NCBI GenBank assembly: GCA_951406725.2
Contig: OX597825.1
Coordinates: forward strand, 89,156,001-89,220,000
DNA: 64,000 nucleotides
Direction: 5' to 3'
DNA from: Octopus vulgaris
Lineage: Eukaryota
The notes beneath the pieces were generated by a model. That model was not told the DNA's origin, did no database searches, and was given only the letters and a program-made list of their open reading frames with translations. Below are positions 509 through 55,967 of the stretch, piece after piece. Position numbers and translations under genes: made by a program. Every line of letters starts with the position of its first letter. The first letter of the stretch is position 1.

Positions 509-558
<50 letters not shown>

Positions 559-1077
559 AATGTCTGTCTGTCTGTGTGTTTCCCTAAAACGTGAGAACTA
601 CACAACCAATTTCATTCAAATTTTACACATACCTTACTTAGGGTCCATGTAGTTTCATGGGCAAAAGAAATGTTCAACTTCTTGCCTAGAGCGAGCCCAT
701 AGCAATATCATATCTTCTACACTATTTCAGTATTACGTGTTAAAAGTGAAACAAAAATATTTCTCAGATGGTTTCACTTTAACAATAAAAATAATAATAA
801 CAATTGAATTATATGTAGTAAGTGATAATTAAAATCAAACTAAAGTATGATATAATCGTAACATACAAAAGTAAAAAAGCAATTGGTATAAAATTGCATC
901 AATGATTTGAACTTGAATAAATGGTTTCACATGAATGGGAATGAATTAAAAATAAAATTAGCGTGCAGAAATGGAATAATCCAGATGGATAATAAAAAAC
1001 TAAATCAAAGAAAAGACTATTGTCTATAAAGTATGCAATGTAGAGAAAAAAGAAGAACTAACAATTCCAGTCTGTTA

Positions 1078-2868
1078 ATTGTCCGGGTGTTGTTAGTTGT
1101 GATAAGACGGTGAATTTCTTTCTCTCTCTCTCTCTGTGAGAGAGAGAGAGAGAGAGAGAAGAAAGAAAGAATGAATTGATATGATTTCGCGCGAGGCGTT
1201 TGCCTCCACGTGTTGAAACCTTTTGAAGAAGGTGAATTGACACTCTAGTCAAAAAAGCGATTCGTCGCTAATTGTAAGGGAGGTGTTCTTTGAGGAGAAA
1301 CTCAAAGAATATGAAAAGCTTTTCAAAAGGGAGGGTGATAGCGTGAAGCTAATCCCCCCTCCCGCGAAAACAAAAGAGGATAAAGAAAGCAAGACGGTGG
1401 CATATAGAACCCAAGACAGGAGTACAAGGAAACTGGCAAGAATAGAGATAGACGAAATTGAGAAATGTCTGGGAGACATAATGGGAAAAATAACTTATGT
1501 GAGTGAGGTAAGAAATTTGGTACGGTGGAGGTGAGATGTGCAACGGAGGAAATTGCAGCCTCACTGGCTACCACCGTACTAAGAGCCGAAAAATTCACAA
1601 TGTGGCCCTCATACAAGGGAAGAAGAGGGGTTCGAGTTAAAATCCCGAACATACCCCCAGAAGTTAAAACAGAATGGCTGGCAAAAGCCATTCTAGGAGC
1701 AGCAGAAGAGGAAGTGGAGGTGGAATCGAAAGGGGTCAAACGTGGTGAACTGGAAAGGATATGGGGTGGAATTGTGGATGTTGGCCACAACAGAAGACAT
1801 TGAAAGGCTTCCCTACAGAATAGAGGTGGAAGACGAAAAGACCCTCAGCGTAATCGTAGAGGGGAGAAAACCCAATTGTTACTTGTGTGGGACAAAGGGG
1901 CACATTAAAAAGGAGTGCCCGTTATATGAATTCGTAGCAGAGTGTGAGCAGGAAAAGGAACTTGAAGAAAAGAATAATACATTAAATGAGAAAGAAAGCA
2001 AAGAAAAGGAAACAAAACAACAAGAGAAAGAAAATAATAAGTCAATGAAGGAAAAAGAAATAAAAGGAAAGGAATTAATAGAACCAAAACAGAGTCAAGA
2101 GAAAAAAAGGAAAGAGAAACAACAGGGAAAAACAAGACAAGGAACAGAGACAAGCGAAAAGAAAAGACGGTACACAAAAGGAAAAAGAAACTCCAGGAAA
2201 GGAACATAAAGTACGAGATAAAGAGAAAACAGAAAAAGACATAAAGACAAGAGAAGGAAAGAGAAAGAAAAGAAAGAAAAGAAGAGAGAGAGAAAGAAAA
2301 AGGGGAAAACAAAGAGGAAATAAGTCCGAAAAGGAAGATGAAGGAAAATACAGGACGGAATCGGGATTACTACTATTATAGATTAGTAACCTACCATTTC
2401 TGCCCTGAAATGACCGATGTAACAACTGAAACGGAGGGACATGTATGGGTCAACAGGATGACCGACCGGTGGGAGGAGACTGCTCTAACCCCCGAGGAAG
2501 GAGGCGCTGAGTTCTTCAAAGCTGCCGGGGAAAATGTAATATTTTTCACGAAGGTTCGAGTGAGAGAGCGGCTACCTACGGATTCAGTGATGGACTTCAG
2601 AGAAGTGAAAACAATCGTAGAATATGTGTAAGATTGTAAGAAGAAAAAAAAAAGAAACAATTTGGTGAAATATATGTGAAAAAACTTACGAAAATGTAAC
2701 CTTTTGATTCCGGGGATCGAGTGGACATTTACATCTCATTGTAAATATTCTTTCATATTTCATTATTACTTTTATTTTTTCCTTTTCTTGTCATTTGCTT
2801 TCTTATTTTAAGTTCCCCGGGTGTGTTGTCCATCTCTGTGTTAACCTTTATGGTAAAAAAACAAATCT
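1078..2868 (+). mobile_element. ORF1-only (gag-like) non-autonomous non-LTR retroelement, HAL1-like (element A)
   Basis: Bounded by TTCCAGTCTGTT at 1065-1076 and 2869-2880. It holds a frameshifted ORF1 homologue and no EN/RT. Its A-rich 3' tail is similar to the tail of the downstream LINE. Confidence 0.7.
1283..2631 (+). pseudogene. Frameshifted LINE ORF1 with CCHC zinc knuckle (element A)
   Basis: ORF pieces 1283-1534, 1525-1803, 1742-2209 and 2338-2631. Motifs FGTVEVR, KIPNIPPEV and VEGRKPNCYLCGTKGHIKKEC are colinear with the ORF at 3090-3953. A K/E-rich low-complexity region follows. Confidence 0.75.
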
Positions 2869-3089
2869 TTCCAGTCTGTTCGTCGATTGCTGTTACGTTA
2901 TTTAATACCAGTTTGTAAAAATATTATTGTTATTTTAAATTGTATATTCTGTCTGTTTGTACAAAATTGTTATTTGCCTTCATTTGAAGGTTAGGTATTA
3001 ACCCCCCCCCCCCCGGTGGGGGAATTATCGTAGAAAAATTTACAAAACGGCACAAAAGGCTTGCGAAGCCAGAATTTTGCAAAAAAGGC

Positions 3090-4406
3090 TTGTTAAACCC
3101 AATTGAAAGGCTTGTTAAGCCATATTCGGAGATGGAAACCCCTATCTCTTATTCACCTGTGTCAGGTAAAGAAAGCTCACCGGTGGTGTCGCCGAGAGCA
3201 GGAGAAGCCCCAACGAAGAAGTTTTCAGAAGTGGCGGGCAAGAAACTAAAGAAGATAAACACAGAAAAAAGCAACTTGGAAAAGTATACAACATGTCTTA
3301 AAAAGGAAGGGACAGAAGTGACAGTAACACCGAACGTCAGCAAAATAGAGGAAGTCGAAAAAAGAAGAATAATCTACAAGACATACAACACAACAATGAA
3401 ATCCATTGAAAGAGTGGAAGAAAAGAAAATTGAGAGTTGCCTAAAGGCAATATGGCAGGAAATTACTTACCTGATTCGTGGAAGAAAATTCGGAACGGTA
3501 GAGGTGAGGTTTAGGACAAAAGCGATAGCTAAAAAGCTATCAACTGAACCATTAAAAGCAGACGATATAGTCCTCCTCCCCCTGTACAGAGGCAGAAGGA
3601 CGTCGAAAATCAAAATCAACAACATTCCCCCAGAGGTAGACGCCACATGCCCGGTGGCGGCAGTCATGTTAGGACTGGAGGACAAGATCAATATCCTCCA
3701 GGCTACAGTAGAGGAGGAGGGGCATTGGAAAGGCCAATGCATTTCAATGGCAATACAAGCGGAAATACAGACTTTGGAAGAAATTCCAGAGACGTTGAAA
3801 ATCAACGAGGAGGAGAGAGTAATAGTTTTTGTGGAAGGCAGAAAGCCGAGGTGCTTCGGCTGCGGTAAAAAGGGGCACGTGAGAGCAGAGTGCCAACCTA
3901 AACCACAGGAAGCAGCACCGCCAGAAAAGGAAAAGGAAAAACCAGAAGCATAACCAGACAACTTAAAGAAAACACCAGAAAAAACAGAAAAATTAGAAAC
4001 AACAGAAACAACAAGCTGTGAGGAAAAAGAAAAAGAGGAGGGGTGGGAACAAATCACCAAGAAGAAACGAAAAACAGAAACCACCCCTCAGAAACTGAAC
4101 CAGCCAAAAAAATGAAAAGAGAACACGAGCACATTCATGGCCATTAAGGCATCCAACAACAGATTAATTAACGGTTTGGCAGCGATGTCAATGGTGAGGA
4201 AAGTTAGAAAAACAAAAGACATTATCGTTTACCGAATAGGCCAGAAGGATTACGGACGGATAAAATCCGAATTCTTCCATGACGTGGGCCCTCTGACAAT
4301 GGACATATCACCATATATATACGAGGGCCTGCATCAGACTCCCCCACGAGTCCGGGAAAAAGATAAAAGTGAAGAAAAAGAAGAACAAGTCGAACCACTG
4401 ATATAA
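3090..4406 (+). pseudogene. LINE ORF1 (gag-like, CX2CX4HX4C knuckle), interrupted by a stop at 3951-3953 and a probable frameshift
   Basis: VEGRKPRCFGCGKKGHVRAEC. The K/E-rich frame continues past the stop (EEGWEQITKKKRK), and a C-terminal piece at 4137-4406 ends 8 bp before the ORF2 ATG. Confidence 0.8.
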
Positions 4407-4414
4407 GGTAAGTC

Positions 4415-7400
4415 ATGAATTGCATTTATGTTGGTTGTTTAAATGGGCGCGGTCTGGGATCAAACTGGAAGCAGAGTCGTTTCCTTAATGATATCAGGTC
4501 GCGTAATTTGTATGTCATTGTTGCTACAGAAACCCGGTTAGAGGGACCAAGAGGTCTACTCCCGCTGTTTGACGGCTACGAGAGTTTTTTTTCTCTCTGG
4601 CCATTCCTAACGGCGGGGGTGGGGTGTTGGTCCTGTTAAAAAGAAACCGGGTTTTTGAGAAAATGTTTTCTCAAAAACCCGGTTTCTTTTTAACAGGACC
4701 AACACCCCACCTTCAGATCCAGAAGGTAGGCCGGTCGTCATGGATTTGATGTTCAGTAACAGTAAAGTTATCAGACTGGTTGCAATTTACGCACCCAAAC
4801 AAAAGGGGCAAAGTGATTATTTTCGAGAGCTGGAGAAGTTTCTTGGTACTTCACATTCATTAGTTGTGCTAGGCGACTTTAACACAATTTGCAAGGCGGG
4901 TGTGGATTGCGTTGGCTTGCGTCCAGATAGAAAAGGTAACATTGGCTTCCTGGAATTGCTAAGTCACTTTGAGCTAGCAGATCCTTATAGGTTGGAATTT
5001 CCGAACGCTCCATTGTGGACATGGTCAAGCAGCGACGGATCTTCCAGGTCATACACAGATAAAATACTAATTAGAAAAGTAGACAGAGAAATAGCTAAGT
5101 GTCCACAGTTTTACCCGGTCAGCTACAGTGATCATAAAATAGTCACCCGTAAGCTTGACGTAGATAAGGTTAATAATAGAAGCTCCGGTTATTGTAAACT
5201 TAATACGTTCCTTTTGGCGATTAAGGAGTACAGAGACCGGATTAGGACTATAATTCGGAGGGCGCTATCTGGTGCAATCATTAATAACAAATGGTGGTAT
5301 GCCCTCAAGCGAGCCATCAAATTCGAGTCTATTAGATATAGCATAGGATTAGTGGCTAGAGAGGCTAGGAAGGAATCAACTCTAGTTAAGGAATTAGAGG
5401 AAGCCTTGAAAACTGGCTCTGCGGATCAGGTGACGGCCAAGAGACTGACGTTAAACCAGCACCTCTAGGCCAAACACATGGGCTGCATTGTTAGGGATAG
5501 GATCCGCGCAGTGGGTTGTGAAGGGAATCAACGCCGCGAGATGGGCCCGAATGGTGGAAGCTCAGCGTGGTAATGATGCCACAATTCGATCTTTGACGGT
5601 CCAACAAGGTAAGTTGATAAACGAACCCGAGGAGATGTGTGAGGCCTTTCAGGAGCACTTCGCTCAGCTTTTCGGTGGGGGCGGCGGACCGGATAGAAGG
5701 AGGGACTTTACGGACCTCCTCGACGGACTGCCGCGCCTATCGGGGCGAGATGCGGAGGGCTGTGAAAGGCCAATCACGCCTGAGGAAGTGGCTGAGGCGA
5801 TGGCGGACTGCGGCGCGGGCAAGTCGCCGGGGTTGGATGGTCTACCCTATGAATTATATAAGAGTATGCTAGACTTGTTCGGGCACCTACTGACGGAGGT
5901 CTATGCGAACTGGCAGCAGAACGGGTTCATTCCCAGATGTGTGCGCCGGGGAGTAGAAAGGACTCGAACAAGGAGAGTGCATTGATAATTTCAGGCCCAT
6001 CACTCTGCTAAACACAGAGTTGAAGATTTTGGCCAAAGTGTTATCGAACAGATTGGCGCGTGTCGCGGATGGTCTGATCGGGGAGGCACAGACAAGTGCC
6101 GTTCCCGGCAGATCCATTCAGGATAATCTCCATCTTATGCGGTACACTATAGAGGGGTTTAATAGTATCTCTGGCAAGGGTGGGGCAGTGGCCCATTTAG
6201 ACCAATCTAAAGCATTTGATAGGGTCGACCATCGCTACCTGTTATACGTTCTAGTACAGTTCGGACTGGGCCTTGGCTTCCTCAGGTGGATTATTCAAAT
6301 TTACGATAACATCAACCCGGTAGTTCGAGTGAACGGCTTCTTTTCGAAGCCGTTCAACATCAAGCGCTCGGTTCGTCAAGGGTTTCCGCTCTCCCCGCTT
6401 TTGTACGTAGTGGCTCTTGAGCCATCACTGCTAAAACTGAGCGGCATCCCGAGACAGCCAGGTTGTGGAAAATCGGTGTCAGCCTACGCGGATGACATCA
6501 CCGAAATGGATCGCCTACAGAGGGTAGGTAAGGCCATAGAGGTTTACGAGACGGTGACAAGAGCAAAGGTTTATCGTGAAAAGTCAGTCGGCTTGCAGCT
6601 CGGCACCTGGAGAGGCAAGTCGATACCTCCTGACAGCGTCGTGGGACGTTGGACGGAGGGTCCGATTAAGTTGCTAGGGGTTTGGTTTGGACCAGACCTC
6701 CAAATAGAGAAGAACTGTGGCGAGGTATCGAGCAGGGTGGCTGCAGTAGTCAATACCTGGTCTTGACGGTGGCTATCCCTGAAAAGAAAGGGCGGAGGTA
6801 GCCAATGTGTTTATCGCATCGGTTATCACCAACCGCCTATCCGTTGTTCCTTGCCCTGATTCGTGGTTGATCAAGTTGGAAAGACAGCTCTTCTACTTCT
6901 TGTGTATGAGCGGGAAACCGCTTGTGAAACGCTCTACTTGCTGTCAACAACCGTTAAAGGGTGGGCTAGGGATGCCTTGGCTGATGATGCGCAGACATCT
7001 GTGGCTCTACCTGGATGGTGAACGGGTGAGGTCTCCGCTGGCAAAACTGATGTTTCCCAAGTTCACTAGTTTCGGTGGATGGGAAGCATGGCTGAATCGT
7101 AGATCGAAACTGGGTACATGGTACACGGAGTGTCGCGAGGCTCTCCTGCTATTCCGTCGCTCGGGCAACGCCTGCGGTGGGGGTTCCACGGCATTCTTCT
7201 ATAGAGGGCTGGTAGAGACGGAATGTGAAGATACCTTAGGGGAAGCCCTAGGTCTCGACGATAATCAGCTGGCCAGTCTGTTCCAACGTACATTCAGGCC
7301 GAAGACCCTGGACAACTTCCAGAAGTATCTGGCATGTCAATGTTACAGAGGAGCTCTACCTGTTCGGGATAAACTCGCAAGGCACGGTGGCCAAGACAGT

Positions 7401-7808
7401 CCGACATGCCCAAGATGCAAGCGGGATAGGGAAACGGTCCCGCATGCTATTGTTCAATGTTCGGTCGTGTCAGAGGTGTGGGTTTATGCCGAACAGCTGT
7501 TGTCAAGCACACGAAGAGTACAGCTGTTGACTGAGTCTATTATAAAAATTTACCCACCAGATTTCCTCGCGAAAGAGGGTAAGAATTGTTTTTTCGTTGT
7601 AGTTGCAATTGCGAGAGAGGTGATTTGAAAGACTAGGGTGAAAGGTTTACGGTCAGGCAAGTTCATCTCTGGCCCTGGATTGATGAATTACTTCATCTTC
7701 CACCTGAAACTGAAGATAGGGCTGGAGAGAAAATGCCTGACTAAGAAAGTGTATGAAGAAAGATGGAAGGATGTAGCACGAAAGTTGCGTGTGGATGATA
7801 CCACATAA
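4415..7808 (+). pseudogene. LINE ORF2: APE endonuclease, reverse transcriptase and C-terminal CCHC, with several frameshifts and stops
   Basis: APE motifs GCLNGRGL, TETR, AIYAP, LGDFN, SDH. RT motifs [53 protein letters not shown]-terminal CPRC...ETVPHAIVQC. This layout is typical of L1/Tx1. Confidence 0.93.
4618..4711. repeat. Perfect 46-bp inverted repeat with a 2-nt loop inside the APE coding region
   Basis: 4618-4663 is the exact reverse complement of 4666-4711. Confidence 0.95.
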
Positions 7809-8231
7809 ATGTAAACCAGGACGAAAACCAAAGTATCACTGGTGAGGGGGGTGATTCGTAGGGTGCGAGCTAAACCCGCCCTCACTCCATCCGTAATGTC
7901 TTTTGGTCTGTTCTTTCATTCGATTTTTTGATATTTTTGGTATATTTTTAAAAGCTCATCATTTTTGTAATCCCATCCGCAAATCTGACCCCATATCATG
8001 TTGTATTGTCCCCTCTATGTTCGCCCCTTGTGGGTAATAAAAAATCAATTCCAGTCTGTTATATATTTTGAGTATTGTTATCACTAGTGATATCAATATA
8101 TAATTTTGTATTTTGCATTTTATGTGTAGATGTATATATATATAGATGTACATGTAATATGTACACATATATATACACATATATACGTGCACTAGCACTA
8201 TGACCCGGCAACGACGGGTCTTTAATGCTAG

Positions 8232-8262
<31 letters not shown>

Positions 8263-10077: not shown

Positions 10078-10592
10078 TCTATATATATATAAAACTGTAG
10101 TTGTGTGAGTGTCTGTCCCCTTCGATTTAGATTCCTAACTACTCCCACATTTTGCGGTGCAGTTTAACCAAACTCGGGTATCTTATAGTCGTGATTCATA
10201 TCGAGCCCGTCTGAGTATTAGCGCGCGTCTACGATGAGTCTACGATTTTAAAAATAATTTAACATCATTTTTTATTCCATTTTAATGCATAATTTTTCGT
10301 GTGTCGATGGCGGCGGAGTTGGCGTTCATGGTCACACCTGCACCTGTGTGCTTCTCCCCTTTCTTCCCTCCCTCGTGAAGCTGTGGGGAAGGGAGTGTAA
10401 GGAAATCAACGTCGTAAAGCGTTGTCAAGGAGACCAGCGTTCTTTCAGAACAACAACTTCATGGCTTGAAGACACCAAAACAGAAATGGCTAAGAAAGCT
10501 CGAATTGGTATCTATAAGGGAAGTAACTCTCTAAAAATGCTTATATAGTTATTTCCCTTACAAACCCGAGCAACGCCGGGCGATACTGCTAG
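10078..10592 (+). mobile_element. Non-autonomous Helitron
   Basis: A|TC 5' end, subterminal hairpin CCCGAGCAACGCCGGG, CTAG|T 3' end. A second copy lies at 11447. Confidence 0.85.
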
Positions 10593-10599
10593 TATGTAT

Positions 10600-11446: not shown

Positions 11447-11839
11447 TCTTTATATATAAAAGTCAAGTTGTGTGTCTGTCTCCTACGATTTTGATTCCTA
11501 ACTACTCCCACATTTTGCGGTGAGTTTTAACCAAAACCGGGTATCTTATAGTCGTCATTCATATCGAGCCCTTCTTGGTATTAGCGCGCGTCTACGATGA
11601 GTCTACGATTAAAAAAAAATTTACCATCATTTTTTCCATTTTAATGCATTTTTTCGCTATTATATAAGGGAAGTAACTCTCTAAAAATATCTACGATGAG
11701 TAACGATTTAAAAAAAATTTACCATCATTTTTTTCCCATTTTTAATGCATTTTTTGGTATTTTTGGGCTATAACTCTCTAAAAATGCTTATATAGTTATT
11801 TCCCTTACAAACCCGAGCAACGCCGGGCGATACTGCTAG
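11447..11839 (+). mobile_element. Non-autonomous Helitron, same family as 10078, with an internal duplication and lacking a segment of that copy
   Basis: A|TC...CCCGAGCAACGCCGGGCGATACTGCTAG|T. The internal ~100-bp unit CTACGATGAGT...TAACTCTCTAAAAAT is present twice. Confidence 0.85.
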
Positions 11840-11927
11840 TATTATATATTTATATTGTGAAATTTGAGTTAATACTCCTAAATTGGATTTTTCCCTGTAA
11901 GTTTGGAGTTATACTCCCTAATATTAT

Positions 11928-19960: not shown

Positions 19961-20100
19961 TTGTGTTTGTCCCCCACCCCAACATCGCTTGACAACCGAT
20001 GCTGGTGTGTTTACGTTCCCGTAACTGAGCAATTCGGCAAAAGAGAACGATAGAATAAGTACTAGGCTTACAAAGAATGTTCTGTGGTCGATTTGCCCGA
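19960..20100 (+). mobile_element. SINE fragment (family of 10600) lacking its tail
   Basis: Homologous to 10640-10775. Confidence 0.7.
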
Positions 20101-20640
20101 CCATATATTTACTCTAACACAACTGCTCGAGCGAGCGAATGAGTACAAGCTGCCTCTTTGCGTTGCGTTTGTAGACTATGAGAAGGCCTTCGACAGCGTC
20201 GAAACCAACGCAGTGCTCAACTCGCAGCAGAGGCAAGGAGTCGGGGCGCAATATGTGCAGCTGCTCAGGGAGGCAAATTCCGGATGCGCCACCGACATAG
20301 CTCTGCTGTCATCACCCGTACGAGTACCGGGCAAGAAGGGAGTGAAGCAAGGAGATGAGATCTCTCCAAAACTTTTCACCGCATGTCTCGAGCAGATCAT
20401 CAGAGGCATTGGCTGGCAACGCGGTGTCAACATCAATGGCGAGCTACTCACCAACCTACGTTTCGCTGATGACATCGTACTCATCGCTGAAACCACGGAT
20501 CAGCTTCAGACCATGCCGACGGAGCTCGACATCAAAAGCTCTGCAGTAGGTCTCGAGATGAACCGCGGTCCGACAACATACCAACAGGTCGAATGGTGAT
20601 CGGCAGTGATGAAATAGAGGAGATAAAGGAATACTAGCCG
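20098..20640 (+). pseudogene. RTE-clade LINE reverse transcriptase fragment
   Basis: DHIFTLTQLLERANEYKLPLCVAFVDYEKAFDSVE, GVKQGDEISPKLF, NLRFADDIVL. Confidence 0.88.
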
Positions 20641-31260: not shown

Positions 31261-31392
31261 TTATATAACCTTGTCTGATTTTCACATATATAATGATATA
31301 TTTAAGATAATATATTATAATTGAATAAAATAAAATGAAATAGTAGAATGTTAAATATTCATATAACTATATTTCATGCATATATGTTCGGG

Positions 31393-31532
<140 letters not shown>

Positions 31533-31550
31533 CGAAGAGAAAACACATCT

Positions 31551-33110
31551 CAATCTGTGGCGGAACTCACTGGATGCTGGATATATACCAGAAGACCTTC
31601 TATCCCAATCTGTTGTCCCAGTTTTCAAAAAAGGAAACAAATCGCTTGCCGTGAATTACCGTCCAATCTCACTCACCTCTCATATCATCAAGGTATTTGA
31701 GTGGGTGCTGAGATCGCGTATGACTCACTTCCTTGAGAGTCATAATATGCTGAACCCCAACCAGCATGGATTCCGTAATGGGAGAGATTGCCTGACGCAG
31801 CTACTGCATCATTTTGATAACATTTTGAGAGCCTTGGGAGAAGGTTCCAACACTGATGTCATCTACCTTGATTTCAGCAAGGCCTTTGACAGGGTTGATA
31901 ATAAGATCCTTCTGAGAAAGCTGTCCAATATTGGTGACACTGGAAAGCTGCTGCAGTGGATCAAGTGCTTCCTGTCTAACAGAACCCAACATGTTTTAGT
32001 CGAAGGAGTCAAATCCAGCCCAGCCAAAGTCAGCAGTGGTGTCCCACAAGGCACTGTGTTGGGCCCACTTCTCTTCATCATCTACATAAATGATATTACT
32101 GACACCATCAAACACAGTAACATCAGAACCTTCGCTGATGATTCCAAGCTCCAGAAGGTCATCAATGGCGTGGATGACCGAATAAACCTTCAGTCAGACC
32201 TTCTGACTGTTGTCCAATGGGCAGAAAAGAATAACATGTTGCTAAATGAAGACAAATTTGAACTGATCCACTTTGGAAGGGAGGACGCTCTCAAACTCCC
32301 ATACTCTCTTCCTTCTGGAGAAATTCTCATGGCATCCAACAACATCAGAGACCTGGGAGTAACAGTGGACAACAACATAAGCTGGGCTACACATATAAGC
32401 AGCAAAGTTGACATGGCCCGCAGAATGTGTTCCTGGATTCTCAGAACCTTCCAGTCGAGAGATTCCCACGTTATTATCCTTCTCTTCTCCACTTTTGCCC
32501 GACCCCACCTTGAATACTGCTGTCCAATGTGGTCTCCCTACACAAAACAAAATATTATGAGAATTGAAGCTCCCCAAAAGTCAATCACAAAAAAGATAGA
32601 TGGCATGTCAGACCTTGACTACTGGGGTAGACTAGAGAAGCTGAAATTGTATTCACTCCAACGACGCCGTGAACGCTACATTATTTGTATGATGTGGAAA
32701 ATATTCCATCAGCACTGTCCGAATGATGTTGGCATCACCTTCAAAATGCATCCAAGGCTTGGACCACGTGCCATCCGTCCACAACAAAAATTTAAATCGC
32801 ATCACATAACGACAATACGGCACAACTATTTCACCTCAATTGGACCCGCTCTCTTCAACATTACACCAGGACACGTCAAAAAAGAAACTGACCACACAAA
32901 ATTCAAGAAGTCTTTGGACAAATTCCTTCAAACAGTACCGGACAAACCACCCACACCCGGATATGTCTCCGCAAACAATAACTCTCTGCTCGAATGGGCC
33001 TTGGTGCCCAAATCCTGAACTGAAAGACTTCGCCAGGTGGTGCTATTAAGTTAGACATGGCCTGGGCCAATACTGGCCAAAACCTTTCTAAGTTATTCTA
33101 AGTCTAAGTT
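31551..33110 (+). mobile_element. 5'-truncated CR1-clade LINE (family 1) with an uninterrupted RT frame to 33018
   Basis: [59 protein letters not shown]. The tail is GGTGGTGCTATTAAG...(CTAAGT)n, and both sides are (TA)n. Confidence 0.92.
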
Positions 33111-36900: not shown

Positions 36901-37039
36901 AAGAGGAGAAACAGCAGAATAAGAGGGACACCAGATTTAACGTATCTGGAAAAGAAAAAAACATTGTAATGGTCTTTCGCGTGACAAGTGTTTAGAAGAA
37001 TTGAAGGGAAAGCAAATTGAGACATAGGTACCCATTTCT

Positions 37040-37265
37040 TTACTACCCACAAGGGGCTAAACACAGGGAGGACAAACAAGGATAGACAATCGGATTAAGT
37101 CGATTATAACGACCCCAGTGCGTAACTGGTACTTAATTTATCGACCCCAAAAGGATGAAAGGCAAAGTCGACCTCGGCGGAATTTGAACTCAGAACGTAA
37201 CGGCAGACGAAATACGACTGCGCATTTCGGCCGGCGTGCTAACGCTTCTGCCAGCTCGCCGCCTA
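37040..37265 (-). mobile_element. Full-length tRNA-derived SINE with a Nin/Deu-like central domain
   Basis: The minus strand reads GGCGGCGAGCTGGCAGAAGCGTTAGC...GTTCTGAGTTCAAATTCC...GGTCGACTTTGCCTTTCATCCTTTTGGGGTCGATAAATTAAGTACCAG. Several copies occur in the window. Confidence 0.8.
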
Positions 37266-37799
37266 TTGAGACATAGGTACCGCGTCTCGAATAAAGGAGG
37301 AAAATACTACACTGAAGTTAAATTCGTTAAATTCTCCGGCACGCAAAAATGGATAAGGAAAACATCAGACGGTGGTCGGTGGAGAGAACATGCTGATCCT
37401 TCCGTCCAGCCCTGGACTGAACATGTGCAAGGAAGATATGCACCTTGCATAAAATATAAACACTCACAGGTACATTATTTTGGTGGCGTCAGAGGGTTCT
37501 TATTCTGAGGTTGTGTTGTCGGTAGTGAGGATCTTCAAGCAAGTTGCAATTGGGAAAAAATAATGGGGTTAGCACATTTATCTATTATTTTCTAGTTGTT
37601 GGCTGTGTTTGTGGGGGAAAAGTAGGACAAAAAGAAGGAAACCGGATGGAAGAAAGGTAAAAAGGAAATGAAGATTATTCCCCCACCATCGCCCCTGTAA
37701 TAAAAACAATATAGCCACAGAGATATGTACAAACTCATCCATTCTTTAGGTCACAAGGTGACTGAAGATTCTGCATGTCAACGGATGGAACTCAGAGTA

Positions 37800-47152: not shown

Positions 47153-50100
47153 AGGACCTTCTTGGTTTAGTGGTACGGAACGTTCAACTGGCATTCTTTT
47201 ATTCTTTTACTTGTTTATAACCAAAGAAAATAGTGAATATTGGCTGTTGGAATGTACGGACAATGCTTGAACACAAGTCCTCTGAATGTCCTGAAAGAGG
47301 GACTGCGCTTGTTGCAAAGGAGCTTCAACACTATGATCTTGACATCGTTGCTTCATCTGAGACGAGATTACCTGGAGATGGTCATCTTACAGAATCTTTT
47401 GGAAAATATACATTCTTTTAGAAAGGGAGGAATAAAGAGTTTACAGGAGAAGCTGGAGTGGCATTTGCTGTTAAGACTACTCTTGTGGACAAGTTGGAAG
47501 AATTCCCAATCGGAATTAACGAGCGTCTTATGTCCATGAGAATTCCTTTGGCTAAAGGAAATTATGTGACCTTGGTGAGTGTGTATGCTCCAACTATGTG
47601 CTATACTGATGACGAAACACTTTCTTTCTACCATGCTTTAAAGGGCATTATAAGAAATATCCCTCGGGCAGACAAAGTCATTGTACTGGGTGACTTTAAT
47701 GCTAGAGTGGGTAGGGATTTTAACACATGGTCTGTAATTGGAAAGCATGGGGTGGGGAAGTGTAATAGTAATGACATGCTTTTGCTGCGGATGTGTGAGG
47801 AGCTGCGTCTGTGTGTTACCAATACCATGTTTCAATAAAAGAATAAGCTTAAGACTACATGGATGCACCCTGCATCTAAAGAATGGCATATTCTGGATTA
47901 CATCCTAGTTAGGGTGCGTGACAGACGGGATGTGCAGTGTGTTCGTGTTCTTCGTGGAGCTGAGTGTTGGACTGACCACCGCCTAGTACGTGCAAAAGTG
48001 AAATTAGTCACAAAACATAAAATCCGAGCTGCAGGGATGACCCTGCCTAAAAGACTGAATGTTGATCGTCTTAGGTATAATAGTGTGCAGAGAACTTTAC
48101 GAGAGGAAATGAATGCTGCAAATATAGGCGAGGATTGGCCGACCCTTAAAAAGTCAGTTTATGATATAGGCAAGAAAGTTCTGGGATTAATACAAAGAAA
48201 GCATCAAGATTGGTTCAAAGAAAATGATGAACATATAGATGATTTATTGGCTGATAAAAGACGTACTTTGTGGCGCTATTTGTTAGCAAAGCCACAGGAA
48301 AGGGAGGTGTTGCATAGGGAACTCAAGGATGTAAAATCAACCGTGAGGCAAAGGCTCTCTCAGATGAGGGATACGTGGTGGAGTAAGAGATACAGGCGGC
48401 ATCAGATTCCAATAACTCAAAGCTGTTGTATGATCTCTTGCGAGAAGTTTATGGAACGACGTCTTCCCTGATGACACCACTTCGAAGCAGGGATGGTAAA
48501 GAACTTCTTCGTGATTCACAAGAAATTCTGCGAAGGTGGCAAGAACACTTTGATGAACTTTTGAATCAGCAGTCTGTAGTTAGTGAGGATGTTCTCAATC
48601 TCATCCCTGGATTGCCTGTGAAGGCAGCACTCGCAGAACCACCAAAGCTGGAAGAAGTTGTAATGGCTGTCTCAAGGTTGAATAATGGTAAGTCTCCGGG
48701 TATGGATGACATACATACGGTTTTGTTACAGCATGGTGGTGAGAAACTGCTGCAGAAACTTCACTCTTTGTTTGGTAAGATATGGACTAGTGAATCTGTA
48801 CCTGAGGACTGGGGGGATGCAGTAATGGTGGTCCTGTATAAGCGAAAGGGCAACAGGAATGATTGTGTTAATTATAGGGGAGTATCATTGCTGTCTGCTG
48901 TAGGAAAGGTTTTATGCAGGATACTTCTGGATCGTCTGCTGAAATACATTGTAGATGGTGTTCTTCCAGAAAGTCAATCTAGCTTTCGTGTGGGACGTGT
49001 CACTGCTGATATGATCTTTTCAGCTAGACAGCTTCAGAAAAAGTGTATGGAACAGGGTCTGGATTTGTATCAGGCTTTTGTCGATCTGACAAAAGCCTTT
49101 GATACCGTCAATAGAAAAGTATTGTGGAAAGTCCTCCAGAAACTTGGGTGTCCTGAAAAGTTCCTTGCTTTGGTTACGTCTTTTCATGAATGGTAGAGTG
49201 AATGTTAGAGGGACGATGTCGGAGCCCATTTCAATACAAAATTGAGTGAAACAGGGGGATATTCTGGCACCGACCCTATTTTCCATATATTTTACGATGG
49301 TGTTCTGTATTGCATTCAGAAACTGCAGATACGGTGTTTACGTCCATTATCGAACCTCTGGCAGCATATTTAATATCAGGCGCCTTGCTGCAAACACAAA
49401 GGTATTTACCTCTATCATAAGATACCTTTGTATACAGATGAATGTGAGCTAGTAGCACACACAGAGATTGATATGCAACACATTTTGAATGCATTATCTG
49501 ATGCTTACACTGCCTTAGGATTGACAGTCAATCTCAAGAAAACTGTTGTCATGCATCAACCTGCCCCTGGTAAGCAGTATAGCGTACCAAATCTCTATGT
49601 GTATGGTAAACGACTTGATGTAGTTGATCAGTTTGTCTACCTGGGAAGCACTATTAACAGATATGTCAATTTGGATAATGAAATTCCATATAGAATTAGG
49701 AAAGCAAGTGTTGCTTTCGGAAGGCTAGAAAAGTGCCTCTGGAGTCGGCGAGACATATACAGGAAGACAAAAATAAAGGTGTACAAGGCATGTGTGCTCC
49801 CTTCTCTTCTCTATGCCTGCGAGACGTGGGTCACATATCGATACCACCTTAAACAACTGGAACGTTTCCATCAGATGTGCCTCAGACGTATGTATAGCAT
49901 TAAGTGGAAGTACCGCATCAGTGATCTTGAAATATTTGAAGGCTCTCGGTGTGAAAGTATAGAAGCTCAGATGGAGTAGTCATCTTGTCAGGATGAAGGA
50001 TTCAAGGATGCCAAAACAACTCTTTTATGGAGAGTTAGCTAAAGGAGAACGACCTCCACATAAACCAAAAAAGGGGTATAAGGACTTGCTGAAGGCTTCC

Positions 50101-51063: not shown

Positions 51064-52355
51064 AGCTACTAAATGGCTCAAATGTGGATGTAATATATCT
51101 CGACTTTGCAAAAGCCTCTGATAAAGTCGACCATGGTATGATCTGTCACAAACTGCGTGCTCTCGGCATAGGCGGGAAACTTGGAGAGTGGCTGCACAAC
51201 TTCCTAAAAGACAGAAAACAGGCAGTTGTGAACAATGGAGCCACCTCCAAGGAAACGCAAATAACAAGCGGTGACCCACAGCGCACTGTCTTGGGGCCAC
51301 TGATGTTCATAGTGGCCCTTCAGACATGCCTTCAGTTGCTACGATGACCACCCTTGCTAGCTATGCAGATGACACAAAAGTCTCCCACGCAATACAAAAC
51401 CCTGAAAATATTGCGCATCTGCAACATGAGGTGGACACAATATACAGGGGGGCTGAGGACAACAACATGCAGTTTAATGCAGGTACGTTCCAGGCCCTGC
51501 GCTACTGGCACACAAAGGTAAATGACGTGAAGACTGGATACACTGGCCCAGGAATAATTGCAATCCCTGAGTCAAAATCAGTGCGTGACCTGGGCATTGA
51601 CATGAGCAATGATGCATCTTTCCAAATGCATATTGCTAATCTGGTGATAAAATGCAGACGGCTAGCTGGATGGATTCTCCGAACTTTCAGAACAAGAGAG
51701 ATGGAGACACTGATGGTCCTATGGAAAACATTCGTCCCCAGCCGCTTGGACTACTGCTCCCAACTTTGGTCACCACACAATATAAAACTAACAGCAGAAC
51801 TCGAAGCAATTCAGAGAAGCTACACAAAGAAAATCGTCTCAATGCAAAATATCAGCTACTGGGAAAGACTGAAGGTATTAAACCTCTTCTCCCTAGAGCG
51901 GAAGCGGGAGAGATATGCAGTGATATACATCTGGAAAATCCTGGAGGGTCTTGTCCCAAACTCTGGCATTCAAAGTTACTCCAACCGCAGAACGGGGCGC
52001 CGCTGCGTGGTGCCAAGGATTCCAACATCACCATCAAAATACAGGTCCAGATACTGCAACAGCTTGGGTTTCAGAGGACCACAGCTCTTTAACATCCTCC
52101 CTAAATGCCTGAGAGACTTAACATGGTGTGGTTGTGGGTTTCTTTAAAACTAAACTGGATCTCTTCTTGTTGGGAGTCCCAGATGAACCTACCTCAGGAC
52201 AGGAGACGCGGATGCGGGCAGCAGCATCGAACTCCCTTGTTGATCAAGTGCCACGTATCAGAGGTGGATTCACAAACTAGTGTAGCTCATTCAGCGGTGG
52301 TGCCCCAGCATGACCGCGGCCTTCGGGCTAAAACATTTTTAAGGATTTAAGGATT
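51064..52355 (+). mobile_element. 5'-truncated CR1-clade LINE (family 2)
   Basis: [44 protein letters not shown]. The tail is GGTGGTGCCCCAGCATG...(TTTAAGGA)n, and both sides are (TA)n. Confidence 0.9.
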
Positions 52356-53399: not shown

Positions 53400-55967
53400 G
53401 TTGACTGGACTACAAACTGTTTCAAACCAAGCACTCCCGCCTCAACCGCTGACAAAGAAGCAGCAGAGTCACTTTTCGACTTTACGAATGAGTTTTTCTT
53501 GTCCCAACTTGTCCTTGCACCAACAAGACATCAGAAGAACATTTTGGACCTAGTGTTTAGTAACCACACTAACACTATACATAACGTTACAGTGGAAAAA
53601 CCCTTCTTTCAGACCATGACATGGTTCTCTGTAACATGAAATTCCACCAGCCGAAAGCTAATCCTAGTGACCTCCCTCCAGCCCACCCATTTGACAACAT
53701 GGATCTCCATAATGCCAACTGGGATGCAATCAGGAACGAGCTATCACATGTTGACTGGTCCTTTACACATACACACATCTCCACCAACCATAAAACATCT
53801 TGGCAGATCTTTGTAGACACCGTCACAGACATATGTGCAAAACACTCCCCACCAAGACCTGTGAACAAAAAGTGCAGAATCCCCCAAAACAGAAAAACCA
53901 TTATCAGAAAAATAAAAAGAACAAACAAAAATATTAACAAACTAAAGTACTGCCGACAGCAACACACACATTCGACGGCTATCGCACTGCTTGAATCCAA
54001 AAAACATAACCTCCAACAATGCATGAAGACCTTCATCAATAACCAAAGATCAGCTGAGGAGAAGTGGGCCATTGAAAAAATCAAACTCAACTCCAAAGTG
54101 TTCTTTTCATTTGCGAGGTAACGCAGGGTCACTGTTTCCATTGTTCGCCCTCTAATTGATGAAACTGGCACTCTCCAAGATAATGCCAAATCCTTGTCCG
54201 AGATACTGCAGAAACAATACTGCTCTGTTTTCCGCAATCCTGATATGGCCGATCTGGGCTGTATCAGTGATGTCAACCCCCAACACACTATATCGGGCAT
54301 AACGTTTAGTGCCCCTGATGTCTCAGCGGCGATAAACGAAATAAAACACAATTCAGCAGTAGGCCCCGATAGGTTCCCTGCTTGTGTCCTGAAGATGTGT
54401 AGACACCAACTTGCATCTCCCCTTGCTAATCTGTGGAGAAACTCACTGGATGCTGGCTATATTCCAAAAAACCTTCTGTCCCAGTCTGTAGTCCCAGTTT
54501 TCAAAAAGTGAAACAAGTCCCTTGCAGTGAACTACCGTCCGATCTCACTCACCTCTCATATCATCAAGGTATTTGAGAGGGTGGTGAGATCTCGAATAAC
54601 CCAATTTCTGGAAAGCAACAGGCGGCTGATCTCTAACCAACATGGGTTCCGTAATGGAAGGGACTGCCTAACGCAGCTCCTGCATCACTTTGATGACATT
54701 TTGAGAGCTTTGGGAGAGGGCTCCAACACCGATGTCATCTACCTTGATTTCAGTAAGGCCTTCGATAGGGTCGATCACAAGATCCTATTGAAAAAACTAT
54801 CCAACATTGGTGTCTCTGGAAATTTACTGAAATGGATCAAGTGTTTCCTGACAGACAGATCTCAACGTGTTGTAGTTGAAGGGGTAAAATCAAGCCCAGC
54901 TAAAGTCAGTAGTGGCGTTCCGCAAGGCACTGTGCTGGGCCCACTTCTTTTCATCATCTACATTAATGATATTAATGACATCATCAAGCACAGCAACATA
55001 AAAATATTTGCAGATGATTCCAAGCTACAGAAGGTCATAAATGAGGCGAGTGACCGGACATGCCTTCAGTCAGATCTACTGGCTGTTATCCAATGGGCAG
55101 AAAAAAACAATATGCTGCTGAACGAGGATAAATTTGAGTTAATCCACTTTGGAAAAGAGGATGCTCTGAAACTCCCATACTCCCTTCCTTCAGGTGAAAC
55201 TCTCGCGGCGTCCAACAATATCAGAGACTTGGGAGTAATTGTGGACAACAACATAAGCTGAGCCACTCATATAAACACCAAAATTGACATGGCCCGCAGA
55301 ATGTGTTCCTGGATTCTCAGAACTTTCCAGTCGAGAGATATCCACACCATTATCCTTCTCTTCTCCACTTTTGCCCGACCCCACCATGAATACTGCTGTC
55401 CACTGTGGTCTCCCCACACAATACAAAGTATCATAAAAGTTGAAGCACCTCAAAGGACAATCACAAAAAAGATAGATGGTATGACAGGCCTCGACTATTG
55501 GGGTCGACTAGAAAAGCTAAAACTTTATTCTCCCCAACGTCGTCGTGAGCGCTACATCATCTGCATGATGTGGATAATATTCCATCAGCACTGCCCAAAT
55601 GATGTTGGCATCACCTTTAAGGTACATCCAAGGCTTGGGCCCGTGCCATCCGCCCAAAACAAAAATCGCACCCACATCTCATAACAACAATACGGCACAA
55701 ATATTTCACCTCAATTGGCCCCGCTCTCTTTAACATTACGCCAAAACACATTAAAACAGAAACTGACCCTATAGGGTTCAAGAAGTCTTTGGACAGATTC
55801 CTTCAAGAAATCCCGGATAAACCCCCTAAACCCGGATATGTCTCTGTAAACAATAACTCTCAACTTGAGTGGGCCATAGTGCCCAAATTCTGACTTGAAA
55901 GACTTCACCAGGTGGTGCTATTAAGTTAGACATGGTCTGGGCCAATAATGGCCGAAACCTATCAAAG
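53400..55967 (+). mobile_element. Longer 5'-truncated CR1 family-1 LINE, from the end of the APE domain through RT
   Basis: PTRHQKNILDLVF and SDH-like APE end; RT motifs as in the 31551 copy; the same tail. Both sides are TA microsatellite. Confidence 0.92.

Follow-up and report, generated by a model that had tools for sequence, protein, structure and literature searches.

An ORF1-only retrotransposon and an L1/Tx1-group LINE at one target site inside a Helitron-like repeat of Octopus vulgaris

Introduction

Why do some LINE lineages keep ORF1 and live on a borrowed ORF2? In Drosophila, elements that have lost ORF2 are linked with a specialisation for telomeres. A locus of Octopus vulgaris raises the question again. 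In a stretch of 64 kb (assembly GCA_951406725.2, contig OX597825.1, 89,156,001-89,220,000, forward strand), called the window below, a short element A with an ORF1 stands directly upstream of a two-ORF LINE, element B. The initial annotation took A for an ORF1-only, HAL1-like partner with a C-terminal domain of its own and a tail shared with the autonomous LINE, mobilised in trans by a Tx1-like LINE. Is A such a partner, or is it the damaged copy of an element with its own ORF2?

Results

Two insertions at one target

A host repeat is split over 553-8232: after its 5' part come target copy 1, A, copy 2, B and copy 3, and then its 3' part (Table 1). A and B lie head to tail, with three copies of one target around them, inside a Helitron-like repeat. 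When both strands of the 64 kb were searched, the 12-mer TTCCAGTCTGTT was found on the plus strand at 1065, 2869 and 8049, exactly the three junctions; there is no further plus-strand copy in the window and none on the minus strand, and the expectation is 0.007 per window against the three seen. Since the 12-mer flanks the pair on both sides and also separates A from B, both elements were inserted at one target. Element A, with a 12-bp direct repeat at both ends and an A-rich LINE-type tail, is a unit insertion by the criteria of target-primed reverse transcription. Copies 1 and 3 agree over 16 bp, and copy 2 agrees with both over 12 bp. Most simply, B was inserted first with a duplication of 14-15 bp, and A was then inserted into the upstream copy with a duplication of 12 bp. 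This order is preferred because the reverse order requires a later mutation in the middle copy, while B-first requires none.

Table 1. Features of the locus and of the related SINE (positions in the window)
Feature	Position	Strand	Basis or remark
Host repeat, 5' part; follows (TA)n run and opens with short (CTGT)n tract	553..1061	+	sequence; exact 5' end hidden in (TA)n
Target-site copy 1, 14 bp	1063..1076	+	agrees with copy 3 over 16 bp (1062-1077)
Element A, ORF1-only retrotransposon, decayed copy, 1.8 kb	1077..2867	+	motifs, tblastx, ORF2 search
5' region of A, containing a (CT)n/(GA)n tract	1077..1249	+	against B 5' UTR p = 0.12, not significant
A ORF1, broken by 5 frameshifts; stop codon 2629-2631	1250..2631	+	from 1295, core alignable with B-type ORF1
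A C-terminal domain, about 90 aa	2356..2628	+	in frame with knuckle in O. vulgaris relatives
A 3' UTR, 236 nt (B: 238 nt)	2632..2867	+	distance from stop to end
A tail common to B and SINE; putative 3-bp hairpin 2844-2854 before A-rich end	2822..2867	+	alignment
Target-site copy 2, 12 bp, separating A from B	2869..2880	+	repeat search, junction comparison
Element B, two-ORF L1/Tx1-group LINE, decayed copy	2881..8046	+	motifs, Pfam, ORF comparison
ORF1 of B as aligned, with stops at 3951 and 4113	3129..4406	+	69% identity with intact proteins of O. sinensis / O. vulgaris
B ORF2: APE endonuclease, reverse transcriptase, zf-RVT	4415..7808	+	Pfam
B 3' UTR with tail; putative hairpin 8023-8035	7809..8046	+	238 nt
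Target-site copy 3, 14 bp	8047..8060	+	repeat search, junction comparison
Host repeat, 3' part: 6-bp hairpin 8202-8220, CTAG 8228-8231, then T	8061..8232	+	Helitron-type 3' end
tRNA-type SINE with same tail	37033..37264	-	tail 35/42 to B, 31/42 to A

Without A, B and two target copies the host repeat measures about 0.7 kb. Is it a Helitron? The criteria used, as given in excerpts of PMC4344730, are a 3' hairpin followed by CTRR and insertion before T. At the other end, where a Helitron has a 5' TC and Hel-2-like elements have (CTGT)n close by, a short CTGT tract lies at about 563-575, and within the (TA)n run no 5' TC can be seen. No second copy of the repeat was found in the 64-kb window. Judged by its termini, the host is a probable non-autonomous Helitron. 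Near-identical Helitron-like 3' ends of another family (hairpin, CTAG, T) were seen at about 10521-10593 and 11768-11840, within a local duplication.

Structure of the two elements

The ORF1 of A consists of a core, a CCHC knuckle (Pfam zf-CCHC, E 2.6e-05), a Lys/Glu-rich linker and a C-terminal domain. Its frameshifts lie near 1506, 1750, 2103, 2129 and 2244, and no in-frame stop occurs along the aligned path. Compared with the ORF1 of B by tblastx, it gives E 3e-40 over four blocks, and the motifs FGTVEVR, NIPPEV and VEGRKPxCxxCGxKGHxxxEC, reported earlier as common to A and B, are present in both. Does A keep any remnant of ORF2? Eight ORF2 proteins, namely three pieces of B and five relatives, were compared with A. 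All matches were short, the best covering 13 aa of the opposite strand at E 0.045, and none was meaningful, so that the earlier claim of a missing ORF2 is borne out for this copy. The claim that A ends some 240 bp past its last ORF piece is correct as well: the ORF1 stop lies 236 nt before the end of A at 2867, and the ORF2 stop of B lies 238 nt before the end of B. The near-equal distances point to a clean join of ORF1 to the UTR, which random deletion would rarely produce. A word search of sequencing runs, to which we give no evidential weight, found part of A in 20 of the 24 runs listed and half of it in none; 9 runs under 4 organism labels contained 0.21-0.40 of A's words and 11 runs less than 0.2, and no RNA run containing A words was among those listed.

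Element B is the complete LINE. Its ORF2 starts 8 nt past the ORF1 stop and has the domain set of the L1 group: APE endonuclease, RT and a C-terminal Cys-rich domain. The nearest solved sequence is human L1 ORF2p, which the endonuclease piece of B matches at E 7e-04 and the relative P0030 at E 3e-50, against 4e-24 for R2. We presume B to be a Tx1 element from motif likeness, its knuckle-type ORF1 and its behaviour at the target. Among 2757 candidates, B ORF1 matches only proteins of Octopus sinensis and O. vulgaris (7 matches, 68-89% identity). Diverged ORF2 relatives are 52-56% identical to the C-terminal part of B, and no O. vulgaris ORF2 protein above 492 aa was found (4 matches among 1849 candidates). 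The accessions P0013 and P0014 (CAI9744384-385) are consecutive and hold near-identical B-type proteins; they are tandem copies or isoforms.

Like A, B is decayed: its ORF2 carries at least three stops and three frameshifts between 5154 and 7805. The lesion densities, 5 in 1.3 kb for A and 8 in 3.9 kb for B, are of the same order. The segment 4618-4711 is a perfect 46-nt inverted repeat with 2 nt between its arms, apparently an inverted duplication, and it interrupts the endonuclease region. Other RT remnants in the window, at 20099-20563, 31579-32142, 48324-49281, 51090-51323 and 54137-54952, are 23-39% identical to B-type ORF2 and probably belong to other LINE clades. A 559-codon ORF was noted at 31339-33018.

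Age and copy number of the A-type lineage

Could A have arisen from B by a recent deletion? Between A and the B-type ORF1 core, 75 of 205 residues are identical, and the cores are 36-40% identical. By codon position, 104, 116 and 57 of 179 nucleotides agree between A and B. Of 29 fourfold sites 22 differ, a level that amounts to saturation. The codon-position pattern together with the fourfold saturation indicates an old split of two working genes under purifying selection.

Is A, then, a single relic? A-type ORF1 is found in O. vulgaris as nine distinct predicted proteins on eight contigs, in each case the C-terminal half only. The main cluster comprises seven distinct proteins (9 accessions, 6 contigs) of 278-280 aa, which are 92-99.6% identical and form two subgroups. 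Their reading frame is uninterrupted from a point shortly upstream of the knuckle, across linker and C-terminal domain, to the stop position of A itself. A is 74-78% identical to them, with 45 of 50 residues identical in the knuckle region. Two further, more diverged A-type proteins lie on two other contigs. In a tree of 47 columns and 12 rows, which includes four of the seven cluster members, A-type and B-type proteins are split at 100/100, with members from the window and from O. vulgaris on both sides. Judged by these proteins, the cluster shows a family that is recently amplifying in O. vulgaris. P0027 (CAI9739099-101) stands for consecutive O. vulgaris accessions with identical A-type proteins, tandem copies or isoforms. 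P0021 (CAI9723236.1) holds a much more diverged A-type linker and C-terminal domain, 46-47% identical to the others, which suggests membership of an older A subfamily.

At the level of sequence, A is an old lineage separate from B's family and no recent deletion of it, in agreement with the initial annotation; the core identity of 75/205, the fourfold saturation and the 100/100 split all bear on this point. The wider claim, that of an independent old ORF1-only lineage, stands in that the lineage is old, separate and multi-copy with open ORF1 halves, and the ORF1-only structure is that of this copy alone. The absence of ORF2 is shown for one A copy (1077-2867), the other A-type copies being known as proteins alone. 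The gene models are silent on the absence of ORF2, since they are protein records and since those of the B type likewise stop with ORF1. A search of proteins of 225-2000 aa (1 match of 15 candidates) and of the cluster representatives gave no A-type protein that was longer or fused. A metagenome scan with the C-terminal domain gave 222 pattern matches, none of them confirmed, and a scan of viral contigs for A-type loci gave 8, again with none confirmed. With the knuckle region 6 of 308 metagenome matches were confirmed, and all were rejected as short zinc-knuckle matches to unrelated loci. No octopus locus was among the metagenome or viral contig matches.

The C-terminal domain

Since the C-terminal domain is in frame with the knuckle in the O. 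vulgaris relatives, it is part of ORF1. It has no Pfam family. Its profile matched five proteins among 1.84 billion representatives, two of them from O. vulgaris, the best match standing for the cluster of seven distinct proteins; P0018, a bacterial GH25 repeat protein, and P0019 and P0020, with long multi-stretch matches, were dropped as repeat-driven. Between the C-terminal domains of A and B there is no BLASTP alignment, and hhalign gave a probability of 0.1-0.2% on shallow profiles. That both might be RRM-like and homologous is an idea from the sequence pattern seen by eye, neither shown nor excluded by these comparisons. AlphaFold2 gave a mean pLDDT of 43 for the domain alone and of about 32-57 by block for the 278-aa model, and Foldseek found nothing at E <= 0.001. 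A match to MT-A70 in the ESM Atlas (0.83, 117/256 features) was below threshold and was rejected. With a profile of the C-terminal half, no solved L1 ORF1p was matched at E <= 1. Compared with P0022, 67 of 95 residues are kept in the domain and 103 of 131 in the linker, so the domain is no better kept than the linker. The earlier view that A has a C-terminal domain of its own is therefore right at the sequence level, where replacement and extreme divergence are not separable.

The tail

Is the 3' tail specific to A and B? For the last 50 nt, A and B give a local score of 50, against 28 +/- 4.8 in 2000 dinucleotide shuffles (p = 0.0005), and when the 64 kb is cut into 5116 overlapping pieces of 60 nt, the piece that best matches the A tail, apart from itself, is the B tail. 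Upstream of the tail the likeness of the UTRs is marginal (p = 0.04). The same tail is carried by a tRNA-type SINE, which is flanked by a perfect 17-bp duplication (37016-37032 and 37265-37281) of a different target. Tail identities are 35/42 for B and the SINE, 32/42 for A and B, and 31/42 for A and the SINE. The SINE head has A- and B-box-like motifs as seen by eye, and Rfam and ARAGORN gave no match in the window. Partial relatives of the SINE head or body lie at about 46873, 26314, 24918, 15594 and 26668. The tail common to A and B, whose ends had been quoted correctly, is thus real but not exclusive to them.

All three tails can form a hairpin of 3-4 bp with a 5-nt loop directly before the A-rich end. 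When the three sequences are aligned, 11 of the 12 cells are paired and A shows one compensatory change. As 152 of 500 shuffles do equally well, the result is not significant, and the folding energies are ordinary (z -0.9 to +0.6). The case for a conserved stem-loop, which the initial annotation had proposed to look for, is therefore weak, with that one change in three sequences. A repeat survey of O. vulgaris lists, in excerpts of PMC13282606, 80 L1-Tx1 and 84 Helitron families, which are not described there. With the tail on a SINE and 80 L1-Tx1 families in the species, the tail marks A as a client of the group and not of B's family particularly; it is best read as a putative recognition signal of a wider octopus L1/Tx1 group.

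Discussion

How did A come to this site? The likely answer, in our view, is that A belongs to an old ORF1-only lineage, of the HAL1 or HeT-A kind, that is moved in trans by a target-specific L1/Tx1-group LINE represented by B. To the architecture and the lineage described above this reading adds transcription, cis action and trans mobilisation, all by analogy with HAL1 and HeT-A. A would be transcribed from its own 5' region and would make its own ORF1p, with RNA-binding core, CCHC knuckle, charged linker and C-terminal domain, which would package A RNA in cis. A B-type ORF2p would recognise the common 3' tail of this RNA in trans, its APE endonuclease would nick the target inside the Helitron, and A would be copied in by target-primed reverse transcription, giving the duplication of 12-15 bp. 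Which observation ties A to B? In the available text of PMC4494074 target choice is set mainly by the endonuclease, so the position of A in B's site is the best evidence for use of a B-type ORF2, the target preference itself being given by two insertions at one site of one locus. As the tail is also found on a SINE at another site, the shared target, and not the tail, ties A to B. For trans mobilisation, which we infer, the shared target strengthens the claim more than the tail does.

The common target would also be explained, without any trans action, by an autonomous sister family. A-type elements would then be, or would recently have been, a second family with its own ORF2 and the same target, and this copy a one-off or recent internal deletion. 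A single A copy has been read as DNA, and several of the diverged ORF2 relatives have no assigned ORF1. We nevertheless consider such a deletion unlikely, since it must have removed about 3.4 kb, left no ORF2 codons on either side and retained both the ORF1 stop and a UTR of B's length. That no longer or fused A-type protein was found also speaks against it, but this is a weak point, ORF2 being a separate frame.

The pairing itself could also be older than the insertion. If A and B arrived as one composite unit of 7 kb, by read-through from the A promoter to the B tail, the middle target copy would have been inherited, and the outer copies do match over 16 bp and the middle one over 12, with lesion densities of the same order in A and B. 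Yet two sequential insertions yield the same pattern with no extra step; as A has its own tail and target copy, even a donor tandem needs a separate insertion of A; and in O. vulgaris the A-type and B-type gene models are mostly on different contigs. A composite arrival is therefore quite improbable. Hardly to be credited at all is the idea that a domesticated host gene derived from ORF1 gave rise to the A-type sequences as retrocopies or duplicates, so that they are not a self-propagating family: the O. vulgaris copies are annotated as genes, and the nearest ESM Atlas look-alikes of B-type ORF1 include ZCCHC3-like proteins (0.89-0.90, a lead only), but A has retained a tail of LINE type and lies, with a duplication, in the target of a LINE, and near-identical proteins in two young subgroups on six contigs are the typical pattern of master-copy amplification.

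Mobilisation in trans by a B-type LINE thus being the favoured reading, can it be carried further? More tentatively, and with something short of even confidence, A and B may represent an old obligate, non-telomeric pair: a Helitron-targeting Tx1 LINE and, at the same site, an ORF1-only lineage whose ORF1 has another C-terminal domain and which would have persisted in several octopus species from a time before synonymous sites were saturated, still amplifying in O. vulgaris. If this is true, site-specific clustering of LINEs is suggested as what lets ORF1-only partners persist. One tail here has three clients, a LINE, a half-LINE and a tRNA-SINE, two at the same target and one elsewhere. Three clients at two targets offer a natural test of whether ORF1p in cis or the tail alone steers the RNA to ORF2p and to the site, and the young A-type copies of O. 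vulgaris make the ORF1p-in-cis test practical. If confirmed, the locus would add a target-specific ORF1-only element of the L1/Tx1 group, from a mollusc, to the known cases, and a Helitron to the targets of the Tx1 type.

Comparison with known systems

Mammalian L1, the source of HAL1, recognises poly(A) and has no long specific target. ORF1-only derivatives of LINEs have been described for L1 (HAL1), Jockey (HeT-A) and CR1 (Ag-Sponge) in the available text of PMC5786205. HAL1 encodes ORF1 only, has LINE 5' and 3' ends, kept its ORF1 coding for long and uses ORF2 in trans (PMC5753468 and PMC3627910, both from excerpts). A is like HAL1 in having ORF1 only, and differs from it in a knuckle-type ORF1, a sequence tail common to its partner and a SINE, and a specific target. 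We rejected A as a HAL1 in the strict sense: its relatives are octopus proteins only, no solved L1 ORF1p is matched, and its ORF1 is of the CCHC-knuckle type. Ag-Sponge is, like A, a bipartite non-autonomous LINE with ORF1 present, but it belongs to the CR1 clade, and the excerpts of PMC5786205 mention no target specificity.

What is known of Tx1-type targets? Tx1L and Tx1D of Xenopus, Tx1-Mar and Tx1-9_AMi have their target site within non-autonomous piggyBac, Mariner and Harbinger elements, and SINEU-3 of crocodilians uses the transposon target of Tx1-Mar and forms tandems that sandwich the TSD (PMC4494074, in part). Tx1 elements that target DNA transposons in Xenopus and crocodilians also appear in the accessible portion of PMC6719617. 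The tandem and the common target of SINEU-3, as described in those excerpts, are like those seen here, but SINEU-3 is a non-coding partner, whereas A encodes ORF1. The host here is Helitron-like, while the accessible text of PMC4494074 has no occurrence of 'Helitron'. In the open literature searched, as far as its accessible text goes, there is no ORF1-only Tx1-group element, no Helitron-targeting Tx1 and no octopus A family; Repbase, Dfam, the Zenodo library of PMC13282606 and the supplements of bioRxiv 10.1101/2025.06.09.658640 may contain this family or further ORF1-only Tx1 elements. Half-LINEs are already known, and it is the site-specific pairing of an ORF1-only element with a LINE that appears undescribed.

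A further parallel is found at chromosome ends. HeT-A and other ORF1-only elements of Drosophila telomeres, with the partners TART and TAHRE, are like A old, diverged from the partner and placed head to tail with it at a common target. HeT-A belongs to the Jockey clade, occupies chromosome ends and makes no TSD, whereas A is of the L1/Tx1 group and interstitial, with a target duplication inside a transposon. If A and B are indeed an obligate pair, they would be a Tx1-clade, interstitial counterpart of HeT-A and TART.
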